NCBI RefSeq assembly: GCF_963967315.1
Contig: NZ_OZ017288.1
Coordinates: 210,001 to 242,000 of the forward strand
From: Candidatus Minimicrobia sp. QA0096
GTDB taxonomy: Bacteria; Patescibacteriota; Saccharimonadia; Saccharimonadales; Saccharimonadaceae
Reading direction: 5' to 3'
DNA: 32,000 nt
The position numbers and the translations under genes were made by a program. Numbering within the stretch: the first letter of the stretch is position 1; each line of letters opens with the position of its first letter. Shown here one piece after another: positions 3,332 to 21,523 of the stretch. Under the pieces are notes generated by a model. That model did no database searches and had not been told where the DNA came from. It worked only from the letters and a program-made list of their open reading frames with translations.

Positions 3332-3340
3332 CAGTATATA

Positions 3341-3388
3341 GTCTACATGACAGGTGATTGTTCTTTTACGATTGCCTGTCATGTAGAC
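3341..3388 (+). other. Cassette B 3' closing hairpin containing the anti-leader segment
   Basis: A perfect 14-bp stem, GTCTACATGACAGG (3341-3354) with CCTGTCATGTAGAC (3375-3388). CGATTGCCTGTCA (3369-3381) is the exact reverse complement of leader TGACAGGCAATCG (2770-2782). Confidence 0.7.
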
Positions 3389-3404
3389 TCTGAATTTACA
3401 ACAT

Positions 3405-3435
3405 TAAAAATCACCCTGAGCATGGGTGATTTTCT
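3405..3435. terminator. Bidirectional terminator between cassette B and tRNA-Leu(CAG)
   Basis: AAAAATCACCC-tgagcat-GGGTGATTTT, with A/T runs on both sides. A near-identical copy lies at 10420-10450. Confidence 0.7.
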
Positions 3436-3458
3436 TATGATGAAAAAATGTCAAATAT

Positions 3459-3545
3459 TGGTGCGGATGAAAGGACTTGAACCTTCACGTACTTGCGTAC
3501 ACTAGCACCTGAAGCTAGCGCGTCTACCAATTCCGCCACATCCGC
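3459..3545 (-). tRNA. tRNA-Leu (anticodon CAG), class II with long variable arm, encoded CCA
   Basis: Manual cloverleaf: acceptor GCGGATG/CATCCGC, anticodon stem CTAGC/GCTAG, loop TTCAGGT, T-loop TTCAAGT; 87 nt. Confidence 0.9.
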
Positions 3546-16874: not shown

Positions 16875-16950
16875 GCGGGTATAGCTCAGTTGTTAGAGCG
16901 CTTCCTTGCCATGGAAGAGGCCAGGAGTTAGAGTCTCCTTACCCGCACCA
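16875..16950 (+). tRNA. tRNA-Gly (anticodon GCC), encoded CCA, with atypical D-loop and T-loop nucleotides
   Basis: Acceptor GCGGGTA/TACCCGC, anticodon stem CTTCC/GGAAG, loop TTGCCAT. The D-loop is AGTTGTTA (U at position 19) and the T-loop is TTAGAGT (A at position 56). Confidence 0.8.
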
Positions 16951-16995
16951 ATTCGATATTTAGCCATCCGAATGGGTGGTTTTTTCGTATTTATA
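16948..16995 (+). repeat. Left copy of a 48-bp direct repeat bounding island 2 (includes the tRNA-Gly CCA end and its terminator)
   Basis: CCAATTcGATATTTAGCCATCCGAAtGGGTGGTTTTTTCGTATTTATA recurs at 21476-21523 with 2 mismatches. It contains the terminator CCATCC-gaat-GGGTGG plus a T6 run. Confidence 0.8.
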
Positions 16996-18287: not shown

Positions 18288-19161
18288 ATATGAGATTTTC
18301 AAAAATATTTTTAATGAAAAAATATTCGCAAAGTCAAAACCTGATTTGCTCAAGAAAGTCGCCGAGTACCCCGATAGATACGTGGGGCTATTCCGCCCGA
18401 CCAAGCCAGAGGCAAAATTGCTACAAAACCTGTTGCAGTCAAATGAAATCCGTTTTGGCGACGCGTTCGAGGTGGCAATCAAGCAATACTTTATCAACGA
18501 GGGCTGGCAGCCGTTACCGCAAAAGATTACATCGAAAGAAGGTGACGCTCTCGACATAGATCAGTTGCTCGTCAAAGATGACAAAGTACTATTCATTGAG
18601 CAAAAGGTACGCGACGACCATGATTCAACCAAAAAACGTGGTCAGATTAGTAACTTTGAAAAGAAACTTGAGACACTTGTCGACATTTATGGTGATAGAG
18701 TAACGTGGGGATTTTTCTATTTCATTGACCCAAGCCTTGTCAAAAACCGAAACTTTTATCAGCCGGAGCTACAAAAACTGCAAGAATCGTGGGGTGTGCA
18801 CTTGTCAGTGTCGTACGGACAAGACATGTTTAACCAGCTCGACTTATCTCATATTTGGCCTGACATCATGAATAATCTACAAAAATGGCGTCAAGACATA
18901 CCAGACTTACCAAACGTCAATTTTGACAGTAGCCCCAAAGAATCTGCCGAAGAAATAAAAGATCTACCGCTACGCACATTCCGTAAGCTCTTTGATGATG
19001 AGCGAATTGTAAGCCAGATACTGCCCGTGTTGTTCCCGACCGGTGCAACGCTTGCGATACTTGAGCCATATTTTCGCGCACAAAACATAATGGTTACGCA
19101 TAAAATAGCTGATTCAATACTTCTATATCTGCAATCATCGCCCACCAAAATATTGTTGTAA
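18280..19161 (+). CDS. Type II restriction endonuclease (PD-(D/E)xK), partner of the CcrM-like methyltransferase
   Basis: The ATG at 18280 follows GGAGGA and overlaps the MTase stop by 8 nt. The candidate catalytic region is DALDIDQLL...VLFIEQKVRDD (D...E-x-K). Specificity is inferred from context only. Confidence 0.65.
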   Translation: MLEYEIFKNIFNEKIFAKSKPDLLKKVAEYPDRYVGLFRPTKPEAKLLQNLLQSNEIRFGDAFEVAIKQYFINEGWQPLPQKITSKEGDALDIDQLLVKDDKVLFIEQKVRDDHDSTKKRGQISNFEKKLETLVDIYGDRVTWGFFYFIDPSLVKNRNFYQPELQKLQESWGVHLSVSYGQDMFNQLDLSHIWPDIMNNLQKWRQDIPDLPNVNFDSSPKESAEEIKDLPLRTFRKLFDDERIVSQILPVLFPTGATLAILEPYFRAQNIMVTHKIADSILLYLQSSPTKILL

Positions 19162-19223
19162 ATCGCCCCACATCACGCCTGTTTAATTAAGCCGTAGTGC
19201 GACGAGTGTCCGCCAAATAGATT

Positions 19224-19511
19224 TTACTTTATCTTGATGTGCTTTGAGCCACGAAACGCTTTTTTGAGCATATTCTTCATCTCGCGCTCTGCGTAGTTCA
19301 TTACCATTGCGTCAACCTGCTCTTTGTTTGCCGTATATATAAACATCAGTGGTTCGGCGGCGTGATGACAATTCTCACAGATGATGTCCTGCAGTTCACC
19401 AGTTTTGTCATCTTTAGCAATAGGCGCAAAGAACGATATAAGGCACTGCGGACACTGGAGTCTGTGGTTGCCATCCTTATCTGGGTCTGATGTGATCGTT
19501 AAGTCAGCCAT
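19224..19511 (-). CDS. Small zinc-ribbon protein (95 aa)
   Basis: It has CPQC ... CENCHH cysteine pairs, lies 2 nt downstream of the HNH gene stop, and is apparently co-transcribed. Confidence 0.6.
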   Translation of the reverse strand: MADLTITSDPDKDGNHRLQCPQCLISFFAPIAKDDKTGELQDIICENCHHAAEPLMFIYTANKEQVDAMVMNYAEREMKNMLKKAFRGSKHIKIK

Positions 19512-19513
19512 AG

Positions 19514-19843
19514 CTAGTAGCTCCTCACTGCACAGTAGTTGAGCGAAAGACTATCACCCTTTGCGCGGTTGTTTTGCCATTGTAGCGGTTGCAAGTTAGT
19601 GATGACATCAGTACCTCCGAGCGATTTAGGTATGATATGGTCAATCTCCCAGCCACATCTACTTGTTGTATCTCCGTAACTCCCCCATTCAATGAGAGCA
19701 CCACACACGTCGGCACGAACGTATGCAGAGTTATAGCCTTGTACTATACGTGCCTTATTCCATACGTCAATTTTTTGTTGTTCTGTATATTGTTTTTTGG
19801 TTAGTACTCGCAAAAGCGGAGTGTATTGATGATTGTATGCCAT
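19514..19843 (-). CDS. Stand-alone HNH endonuclease (109 aa)
   Basis: The HNH core is GWEIDHIIPKSLGGTDVITNLQPLQWQNNRAKGD. A strong RBS (AAGGAGAAAAATC) precedes the ATG. Confidence 0.85.
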   Translation of the reverse strand: MAYNHQYTPLLRVLTKKQYTEQQKIDVWNKARIVQGYNSAYVRADVCGALIEWGSYGDTTSRCGWEIDHIIPKSLGGTDVITNLQPLQWQNNRAKGDSLSLNYCAVRSY

Positions 19844-20073
19844 GATTTTTCTCCTTTTTTATATGGCTCAACATTGTTGTTGTGCTAGAATAGGAGTGTA
19901 CGAGGGAAGCAAATCTTGCACACTGGTACTGGCGCGAGCCAGTACTTTTCCTATTCTAACGTTGTATTACGGACGGGTACCCTCCGCTTTGACGACCCGC
20001 CCACACAGCTCCACCGTTTGTGTTTTACAGGTTCGTATTCTCATTATATCACAACTGCACACTTATATGTCAA
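19844..20073 (-). promoter_or_regulatory. Promoter plus a GC-rich structured leader of about 195 nt for the HNH / zinc-ribbon operon
   Basis: On the minus strand: TTGACA (20073-20068) and TGATATAAT (-10 at 20048-20043). Stems are GGGCGGGU/ACCCGUCC (20003-19971; the G.U pair forms only on this strand), GUACUGGC-ucgc-GCCAGUAC (19945-19926), and the enclosing TAGAATAGGA/TCCTATTCTA (19958-19886). Confidence 0.55.
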
Positions 20074-20097
20074 CTATACAAACAAATAGTCGTAATA

Positions 20098-20127
20098 TTG
20101 ACATAGTTACGCGCGATGTAGTATACT
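20098..20127 (+). promoter_or_regulatory. Promoter of the XRE-Panacea/toxin operon
   Basis: TTGACA (20098-20103), 18-nt spacer, TATACT (20122-20127). The RBS AAAGGAAG lies 5 nt before the ATG at 20153. Confidence 0.6.
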
Positions 20128-20152
20128 GTACATATAAGAGAAAGGAAGCAAA

Positions 20153-20833
20153 ATGACTCTTGAAAAGAATCTACGCGAACTCCGGGCGATCTACGGACTA
20201 TCACAAGATGATGTGGCGAAAGCGATTGATGTGAGTCGCAGTAGTGTTGTAGCCACCGAAAAAGGCGAGCGTGAACTGAGTAGTGAAGAACTAGGTAAGC
20301 TTGCTGATTTTCTTGGTGTCGATATCATTGATCTTTTATCACAAGAAATCCCAAATTACGAGAAATACCGCGAAATGATAGTGGAAACGCTGCGTCGCTA
20401 TACAGAATACGCAGGCAAAAGCGCAACGAAGACGCTACTCGCAAAACTTATCTACCTTGCAGACTTTGCATGGTATTATGAGCATTTGCAGCCGATGAGT
20501 GGCATGAAGTACCGTCGCTTGCAGTATGGTCCAGTACCCGACCAGTATTTTCGTATTGTTGATGAGCTTATTGATGAAGGTAAGGTATCACTCAAGGTTG
20601 GCGATGAGGCCCAGTGGCTCAATCTCACGCGATCTGCACAAGATACTCCACCTCAGCACCTCTCGACTAGTGAACTTGACTTGATTGATAAAATTGCACA
20701 AAAATGGAAAGATTCAAATACAAAAGAAATCGTACACTTTACACACACACAACTTCCTTGGCAAATCTGTAGGCAAAACGAATATATACCCTACGAGCTA
20801 ATTACCCAGGAAGAGCCGAGCCGTGTTTACTGA
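20153..20833 (+). CDS. XRE-family HTH fused to a DUF4065 (Panacea/SocA-like) antitoxin domain
   Basis: The N-terminus LRELRAIYGLSQDDVAKAIDVSRSSVVATEKGERELSSEEL is an HTH_3-type motif. The C-terminus KLIYLADFAWYYEHLQPMSGMKYRRLQYGPVPDQY is typical of DUF4065. Confidence 0.75.
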   Translation: MTLEKNLRELRAIYGLSQDDVAKAIDVSRSSVVATEKGERELSSEELGKLADFLGVDIIDLLSQEIPNYEKYREMIVETLRRYTEYAGKSATKTLLAKLIYLADFAWYYEHLQPMSGMKYRRLQYGPVPDQYFRIVDELIDEGKVSLKVGDEAQWLNLTRSAQDTPPQHLSTSELDLIDKIAQKWKDSNTKEIVHFTHTQLPWQICRQNEYIPYELITQEEPSRVY

Positions 20834-21236
20834 TAACTACCGTGTACTATTTGAAGATTACTCCGAACGCCACTACGCCAAAGCGTTCAAAAAGAATTAT
20901 GGCAATCAATGGCTTGTAACACGCAAAGCGCTCGTAGCGCAGTTTGCACACATTGATCAGCTAGTGCTTAATGGAAGAACAAATCCTCCGATTCATCGAA
21001 CTGACGACAATAAGGAATGGATTATCAAACATGAGTTTGTCATTGCGGGACGCAAACAATCTGCAAAAGACTCTGGAAACAGAGTGATTTTATATGTAAA
21101 TCATAATGATCGCACCGTTCGTGTTTTACTGCTTTACCACAAGGGTTATCTGGGTAAATCTGCAAGTGAAACTGCTACTTGGCGAGGTATTATAAAACAA
21201 GAGTTTAAAGACTTATTGACTAGGTTTAGTCTTTAG
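20823..21236 (+). CDS. Putative toxin partner of the Panacea antitoxin (137 aa, family not recognised; possibly RelE/ParE-like fold)
   Basis: The GTG start overlaps the upstream stop by 11 nt. The segment FVIAGRKQSAKDSGNRVILYVNHNDRTVRVLLLYHKG loosely resembles addiction-module toxin cores. The assignment rests mainly on context. Confidence 0.45.
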   Translation: MFTDNYRVLFEDYSERHYAKAFKKNYGNQWLVTRKALVAQFAHIDQLVLNGRTNPPIHRTDDNKEWIIKHEFVIAGRKQSAKDSGNRVILYVNHNDRTVRVLLLYHKGYLGKSASETATWRGIIKQEFKDLLTRFSL

Positions 21237-21475: not shown

Positions 21476-21523
21476 CCAATTAGATATTTAGCCATCCGAA
21501 CGGGTGGTTTTTTCGTATTTATA
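21476..21523 (+). repeat. Right copy of the 48-bp direct repeat bounding island 2
   Basis: CCAATTaGATATTTAGCCATCCGAAcGGGTGGTTTTTTCGTATTTATA, with 2 mismatches relative to 16948-16995. Confidence 0.8.

Follow-up and report, generated by a model that had tools for sequence, protein, structure and literature searches.

A covarying leader RNA with competing Shine-Dalgarno pairings ahead of exchangeable nuclease genes in Saccharibacteria

A small operon encoding an HNH nuclease and a zinc-ribbon protein is preceded by a structured RNA leader of about 193 nt (19844-20036, minus strand) in a 32,000-nucleotide stretch, called here the window, of the genome of Candidatus Minimicrobia sp. QA0096. The findings presented here favour the view that this leader is the 5' untranslated region (UTR) of the HNH/zinc-ribbon mRNA and probably acts in cis as a translational control element. 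Its structure, the covariation of its helices, its competing complementarities and the exchange of the genes downstream were established in this analysis. The original prediction, made from the letters of the window, had listed a cis-regulator among the possible roles of the leader. This option gained support, as the leader belongs to a covarying family, its 3' helix pairs with the Shine-Dalgarno (SD) sequence and, in the HNH subtype, an additional strand competes for the same partner.

An uncatalogued family of structured leaders

Folded as a 197-nt RNA, the leader reached -64 kcal/mol compared to -46.0 +/- 4.1 kcal/mol in 200 dinucleotide shuffles, none of which folded as well (z -4.36). Similarly, the leader located ahead of a GIY-YIG gene in a relative gave a fold z of -4.9. 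The G+C content of the window leader was 46.7%, with a core of 52% (around the 95th percentile), while the window mean was 43.5 +/- 5.2% and the promoter DNA beside the leader showed 32%. The claim that the leader is much richer in G+C than its surroundings therefore applies to the adjoining promoter DNA and is overstated with respect to the window as a whole. When we ran the Rfam covariance-model scan that the original prediction had proposed, no family matched the window leader at E <= 10, HEARO included, and none matched the leaders of five related loci.

We then relied on a covariance model of our own, R1, which was built from nine GIY-YIG/DUF2188-type leaders only and had no HNH-type leader in its training set. 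R1 matched HNH-type leaders over their full length, the scores being 29.3 bits for locus L111 (E 8e-5), 24.1 for L119, 22.3 for L004 and 22.0 for L113, and the matches ended 2-5 nt 5' of the HNH start codon. The L111 and L119 leaders, which were among these matches, are 84% and 75% identical to that of the window, respectively. With default filters, R1 found no match in the window. The score of the window leader itself is not significant; it is assigned to the family through these close relatives and through synteny.

Conservation of the pairing was analysed in two alignments. In the 15-member model alignment, 91.8% of the cells were paired and compensatory changes occurred in 24 out of 33 pairs, compared to 9.9 +/- 1.8 in shuffles (0/500), although these pair counts are inflated by the fitting of the alignment to R1. 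When partners were slid as a control, pairing dropped to 31-42%. When 11 HNH-type leaders were aligned on their own with MAFFT, the stems described in the original prediction were 91.5% paired and included seven compensated pairs versus 2.6 +/- 1.2. Leader conservation also exceeded that of the third codon positions of the HNH gene (84% versus 60%, and 87% versus 52%). On this evidence, which comes from a small sample of related members, the leader is a predicted member of an uncatalogued covarying RNA family of about 145-195 nt that occurs in accessory cassettes of Saccharibacteria. The predicted family architecture consists of P1, with a GGGU-containing loop, the G+C-rich P2a, P3, with an AAGnUUnG...CCC loop, and the 3' helix P4, in which a strand termed S pairs with a strand termed D.

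In the window copy, all the stems that had been proposed from the sequence were found in place, and the G.U pair of the 8-bp stem corresponds to A.C on the opposite strand. Helix H1 (19971-20002, on the minus strand like every other element of the leader) pairs GGGCGGGU with ACCCGUCC in the RNA, corresponding in the DNA to GGGCGGGT at 20002-19995 and ACCCGTCC at 19978-19971. Its pairing was complete (100%) in 10 HNH-type leaders; one compensatory change and three one-sided ones were seen. H1 overlaps the family-wide P1 hairpin (19969-19987, minus strand; GCGGA-GGGUACCCG-UCCGU), which aligns with helix 1 of R1. The P2a hairpin (19926-19945, minus strand), formed by GUACUGGC-UCGC-GCCAGUAC in the RNA and GTACTGGC-TCGC-GCCAGTAC in the DNA, keeps its stem while its loop varies, and compensatory changes were present in 6 out of 6 pairs of the family helix. 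The P3 hairpin (19896-19923, minus strand; GUGUGC-AAGAUUUGCUUCCCUC-GUACAC) carries the conserved loop of the family. A 19-nt core, AGTATAGCGTGAACCGMCC, is common and invariant among otherwise diverged members, and the P4 loop, GAACCGACC, is invariant in the main subtype.

Two further sites were noted. One lies at 19925-19946, where the plus-strand sequence of the P2a hairpin, with TTTCCTATTC after it, has a terminator-like score; no gene of that strand ends immediately ahead of this site. The other, at 3338-3459 on the minus strand and beside a tRNA-Leu, gave the highest R1 score of the window when filters were off (14.3 bits, E 0.07), probably through generic hairpin similarity.

Burial of the Shine-Dalgarno sequence and two competing folds

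The region around the start of translation contains the elements of a putative switch. Strand D (19851-19868, minus strand) includes the SD sequence AGGAG (19855-19851). Strand S (19886-19897, minus strand; ACUCCUAUUCUA), the candidate switch strand or anti-SD, can pair either with the SD region or with strand U, and aligns to the 5' strand of the family helix P4. Strand U (19949-19958, minus strand; UAGAAUAGGA), the putative upstream anti-sequestor, is a near copy of the sequence beside the SD (AUAGGAG). The U:S pairing is the 10-bp stem TAGAATAGGA/TCCTATTCTA (19958-19949 with 19895-19886, minus strand). In the HNH subtype, U would mimic the SD-proximal sequence and compete with D for S, giving rise to two alternative folds: in the U:S fold the long stem would be formed and the SD would be free, while in the S:D fold the SD would be buried. 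Compared with the other subtype, the model alignment shows U as inserted sequence.

The energies of both pairings were compatible with such a competition. Among HNH-type leaders, U:S ranged from -12.7 to -18.1 kcal/mol and S:D from -7.4 to -17.2 kcal/mol, that is, they were of similar strength, and in L119 and L122 the minimum-energy fold switches to the SD-buried form. In the divergent L113 subtype, the U, S and D strands were altered together (GCUAAAAUGGCA / UGCCAAUUCUAGC / GCUAGAAGG). The window copy showed a U:S of -18.1 kcal/mol and an S:D of -7.4 kcal/mol, compared to an S:D of -12 to -17 kcal/mol in its relatives. A 5-nt A insertion, revealed by the alignment in D of the window copy, weakens S:D, so that the open, translatable fold should predominate in this copy, the predicted probability of an unpaired SD being 0.85. 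That probability was predicted to be 0.02-0.26 in 8 of the 12 non-HNH cassette leaders, and, for the nine R1-type leaders tested, the cost of exposing the SD was calculated as 9-16 kcal/mol. On its RNA strand, the leader has no predicted hairpin of terminator type with a U run, which fits control of translation and not attenuation. We infer that the two folds may gate translation and that some signal, whether a ligand, a protein, temperature or co-transcriptional folding, may shift the balance between them.

Several points weigh against translational control by this leader. In the GIY-YIG/DUF2188 types, the strand competing from upstream pairs weakly (-3 to -10 kcal/mol) and, with D blocked, it wins only in L108, so that the two-fold design is well founded for the HNH subtype only. 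With filters off, R1 scores the leader of the window at 12.9 bits (E 0.14 over 32 kb), which makes it the second-best match there, and the cassette relatives L091, L092, L098-L101, L118 and L120 do not match R1. The inflation of the pair counts mentioned above belongs here as well. A pseudoknot between the P1 and P3 loops (GGGU with ACCC) was rejected, since it was 82% paired, no better than shuffles, and showed zero compensatory changes. Finally, the promoter, the transcript start and any fold switching are predictions.

Some of these data could also be explained by a passive leader, whose stable 5' fold protects the mRNA against decay and whose conserved sequence serves as a 5' homology arm for swapping the downstream gene, with no sensing involved. 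We rate this explanation as rather unlikely. It would account for a downstream gene that varies (HNH, GIY-YIG or DUF2188) behind a constant leader, often with a constant zinc ribbon too, for the invariance of the 19-nt core across diverged members and for a window copy that is predicted to be constitutively open. However, neither stability nor recombination needs the compensatory changes that preserve the SD-burying helix, nor the covariation of U and D across subtypes, in which both strands stay complementary to S.

It is quite improbable that the leader works in trans or as a processed stand-alone RNA, for instance by titrating a protein of the module (the zinc-ribbon protein, the HTH-Panacea protein or the RelE-fold toxin, the latter two encoded divergently) or by pairing with another transcript. 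Conservation goes beyond what a simple SD switch needs, the invariant P4 loop of the main subtype being an example, and 17-22 nt of the 5' part of the leader are complementary to the mRNA of the 137-aa toxin at 21113-21134. However, this complementarity was present only in the window, L002 and L003, and was missing from L004, L006, L007, L111, L113 and L119. Antisense pairing between the leader and the toxin mRNA was consequently discarded, as it is restricted to the three closest genomes and not conserved. In addition, neither a terminator nor a 3'-end signal of another kind lies between leader and open reading frame, no significant pairing with the 3' UTR was found, and the partner proteins differ between loci while the RNA is kept. 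A clamp between the 5' and 3' UTRs was rejected too, the duplex reaching -50.9 compared to -52.9 +/- 5.4 in shuffles. The complementarity to the toxin mRNA derives from a 22-nt direct repeat with 86% identity (20012-20033 and 21113-21134), which is probably due to chance or recent.

Interchangeable genes behind the leader

The operon controlled by the predicted promoter comprises the two genes announced by the original prediction. The HNH nuclease gene (19514-19843, minus strand) encodes 109 aa and matches Pfam HNH (PF01844) with 29.3 bits, over a cut-off of 21.4. The zinc-ribbon gene (19224-19511, minus strand) encodes 95 aa with a CxxC...CxxC arrangement (C20/C23/C45/C48) and a long basic C-terminal helix, and only 2 nt separate the HNH stop codon from its ATG. 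In the HNH protein the catalytic motif is intact (D68-H69...N83...N91-N92) and invariant or nearly so across 12 homologues. Both the profile and the beta-beta-alpha-metal motif place the protein, on sequence grounds, in the HNH endonuclease superfamily as a predicted member; a comparison of its sequence with the PDB gave zero matches. The zinc-ribbon protein matches PADLOC PDC-M14A (3.6e-11 for the window copy and 1.3e-9 for one relative); the HNH and GIY-YIG proteins gave no match to any PDC-M14 model. No mention of PDC-M14 was found in the library of papers that was searched. The AlphaFold2 model of the zinc-ribbon protein (pLDDT 80.6) shows a zinc ribbon plus a helix, and a fold search with it gave no informative PDB match. 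The zinc-ribbon protein is rare: a search of 1.84 billion proteins yielded 15 representatives.

The predicted promoter of the operon (20043-20073, minus strand) has its -35 box, TTGACA, at 20073-20068, a 19-nt spacer and an extended -10, TGATATAAT, at 20051-20043, the transcript being predicted to start near 20036 on the minus strand. The TTGACA element had already been pointed out in the original prediction, and both hexamers of the TTGACA/TGnTATAAT form were unchanged across 7 related loci. Our consensus promoter scan accepts only spacers of 16-18 nt and did not list this promoter because its spacer is 19 nt long.

Among 80 loci collected for HNH relatives, the leader was present only in the six closest, all of them from Saccharibacteria, five of which also keep the zinc-ribbon gene. 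In the remaining loci (45-60% identity; Bacteroidota, Deltaproteobacteria and others), the HNH gene stands alone in changing surroundings and lacks both the leader and a zinc-ribbon neighbour, and the idea of the leader as a trait of the HNH family at large was rejected. The original prediction had regarded homologues lacking an upstream structure as evidence against its proposal. Distant HNH homologues do lack the leader, whereas the cassette relatives defined by the zinc ribbon mostly keep it.

In these cassettes, the position ahead of the zinc ribbon is occupied by the HNH gene or by a GIY-YIG-like gene unrelated to it, which encodes about 103 aa (weak match to Pfam GIY-YIG, 0.0075), and the swap was seen even beside zinc-ribbon proteins 68-78% identical to that of the window. 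Three-gene operons composed of DUF2188, the GIY-YIG-like gene and the zinc ribbon were found in L118 (298-1201) and L120 (184-1024); the zinc-ribbon protein of L120 is 78% identical to that of the window, though its nuclease has a different fold. The DUF2188 protein of sister cassettes matches PADLOC PDC-S16 (9e-27). The GIY-YIG gene may also precede a TIR protein or a DUF2779 protein in place of the zinc ribbon. An exact-pattern scan with the 19-nt core retrieved the same leader before DUF2188 genes and before the gene of a 92-aa HNH protein with 39% identity to its window counterpart (E 4e-17). The leader family also precedes operons consisting of DUF2188 alone. The exchange of HNH and GIY-YIG genes before a zinc-ribbon gene that hardly changes suggests a functional partnership between the zinc-ribbon protein and an interchangeable nuclease. 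An inhibitor dedicated to a single nuclease fold would be harder to reconcile with this exchange.

Two variants of the cassettes were also noted. In L099 (2501-3537), the gene after the GIY-YIG-like one encodes a zinc ribbon at the N-terminus together with a TIR domain (TIR_2, 6.6e-15), and a LexA-like repressor lies opposite. In cassettes without the zinc-ribbon gene, DUF2188 or HNH comes first and a small protein of 76-86 aa, predicted to reside in the membrane, comes next (L107:1879-2109, L109:448-708 and, in L128, an 85-aa open reading frame after the 92-aa HNH).

That the leader is shared with non-HNH genes and has neither a guide-like segment nor repeats favours control in cis over the remaining roles put forward in the original prediction, namely a guide or scaffold RNA for the nuclease, similar to the omega RNA of IscB, and a type III RNA antitoxin neutralising it. 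These roles can hardly hold: although the HNH domain most resembles, if weakly, those of Cas9 and IscB (the same broad DH...N...N type with no CCCC zinc site) and the structured RNA lies directly upstream, as omega RNA genes adjoin IscB, the 109-aa protein is an HNH domain only, without RuvC or an RNA-binding domain, it reaches 17.6 bits with the guided_IscB model (cut-off 175), the Cas9 models match only about 35 residues of its HNH domain, the RNA has no HEARO or other Rfam match and no hypervariable guide-like segment, both of its ends being conserved between loci, it also precedes GIY-YIG genes and DUF2188 genes, DUF2188-only operons included, that lack HNH, and the region 19100-20200 contains none of the tandem repeats that characterise RNA antitoxins of ToxIN-like type III systems.

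The distribution of the family was narrow. R1 found no match in 150 sampled genomes of the class, the leader DNA was not found in 200 genomes of the family, and the leader core, the zinc-ribbon gene and the GIY-YIG relative were all absent from viral contigs. A search for an empty site by the right flank in four genomes of the same genus gave no DNA match. This rare and patchy occurrence fits an accessory, exchangeable cassette.

Genomic setting, related systems and meaning

The source genome is a complete Saccharibacteria genome of 689 kb, and the operon sits in a 4.5-kb stretch of it located between two 48-nt direct repeats (16948-16995 and 21476-21523; 46/48 identical). The repeats begin at the 3' end of a tRNA-Gly(GCC) and include its terminator hairpin. 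Besides the HNH operon, the stretch contains a type II restriction-modification pair and a Panacea pair, and no integrase gene was found inside it.

The Panacea pair (20153-21236, plus strand) is divergent from the HNH operon and encodes a 226-aa antitoxin/repressor combining a helix-turn-helix (HTH) domain (Pfam HTH_3) with SocA_Panacea (PF13274, 61.7 bits), followed by a 137-aa protein (20823-21236, plus strand) that matched no family by sequence. Its predicted promoter (20098-20127, plus strand) has the form TTGACA-18-TATACT. The AlphaFold2 model of the 137-aa protein (pLDDT 85.7) matched RelE/HigB2 toxins in Foldseek (8a0x_D, E 2.9e-4, probability 1.0; 1wmi_A, 7.9e-4). Because of this fold in the modelled partner, the divergent operon is read as a predicted Panacea-type toxin-antitoxin pair with a DNA-binding antitoxin. 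An inverted repeat (20062-20079 / 20121-20138) spans both divergent promoters and is a possible operator, and the HTH-Panacea protein probably also controls transcription of the HNH operon. A divergent gene was present upstream in nearly all loci for which upstream DNA was available. It usually encodes a repressor, either HTH-Panacea with its RelE-type partner or a LexA-like S24 protein, and in two cassette loci it encodes an AAA-type ATPase. The five-part unit of toxin, HTH-Panacea, leader, HNH and zinc ribbon recurs in other Saccharibacteria beside quite different neighbours; therefore, it moves as one block. Three loci (L088:1-450, L089:1319-1576 and L090:567-824) carry decayed cassettes, in which about 90 nt separate HTH-Panacea from an internally deleted remnant of the zinc-ribbon gene, both leader and HNH having been lost.

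Of the systems described so far, SD-sequestering leaders such as translational riboswitches, RNA thermometers and protein-dependent leaders are among the closest in design. They share with the present family a conserved covarying 5' UTR, a 3' helix that pairs with the SD, a competing upstream strand and the lack of a terminator. Here, the structure is backed by covariation and an SD-occluding helix is accompanied by a mutually exclusive alternative pairing, with a weak S:D in the window copy. The differences are that no Rfam family matches and that the genes behind the leader are small nuclease and DUF2188 genes of defence-type cassettes instead of metabolic genes.

At the level of the cassette, CapH/CapP-type defence operons, DUF2188 operons included, face a divergent module with an HTH repressor (Lau et al. 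2022, bioRxiv 10.1101/2022.04.27.489752). The cassettes described here likewise have a repressor upstream on the opposite strand and DUF2188 within the family, some relatives using LexA-like S24 repressors, and the HTH gene of the window weakly matches capH (1.2e-7). In contrast to CapH/CapP, an ImmA/IrrE-type metallopeptidase such as CapP is missing, the HTH domain is joined to Panacea and paired with a RelE-fold toxin, and the RNA leader would constitute an extra layer that was not described for those operons. The pair itself agrees with PanA/PanT systems in that an antitoxin with a Panacea domain adjoins a toxin gene. PDC-M14 and PDC-S16, the PADLOC systems matched by the zinc ribbon and by the DUF2188 of the sister cassettes, are both candidates defined by enrichment in defence islands. 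Finally, PeSL cassettes of T4-type phages also combine a conserved non-coding frame with interchangeable coding content, but they differ in sequence, and in our case the 5'-3' UTR clamp is missing and the conserved frame includes the gene of the zinc-ribbon protein. The leader shows no similarity in sequence to the other leader modules of the window.

To our knowledge, structured regulatory RNAs have hardly been explored in Saccharibacteria and in other bacteria that are reduced and depend on a host. The leader described here is absent from Rfam, clearly covarying and tied to defence-island genes whose function is little known, namely a minimal HNH or GIY-YIG nuclease, PDC-M14A and PDC-S16. 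A more far-reaching proposal, which we regard as unlikely, makes the leader the sensor of a new riboswitch-like class that would be limited to Saccharibacteria and their relatives among the Patescibacteria, in which the small defence nucleases and DUF2188 effectors would stay untranslated until a signal of infection or damage binds P1-P3 and frees the ribosome-binding site. If this were true, an RNA-level trigger would be added to the repressor-controlled transcription of defence cassettes. If the two folds do gate translation, these cassettes would combine RNA-level control of potentially toxic nucleases with a repressor and toxin-antitoxin module, and the leader would provide a handle on their trigger.

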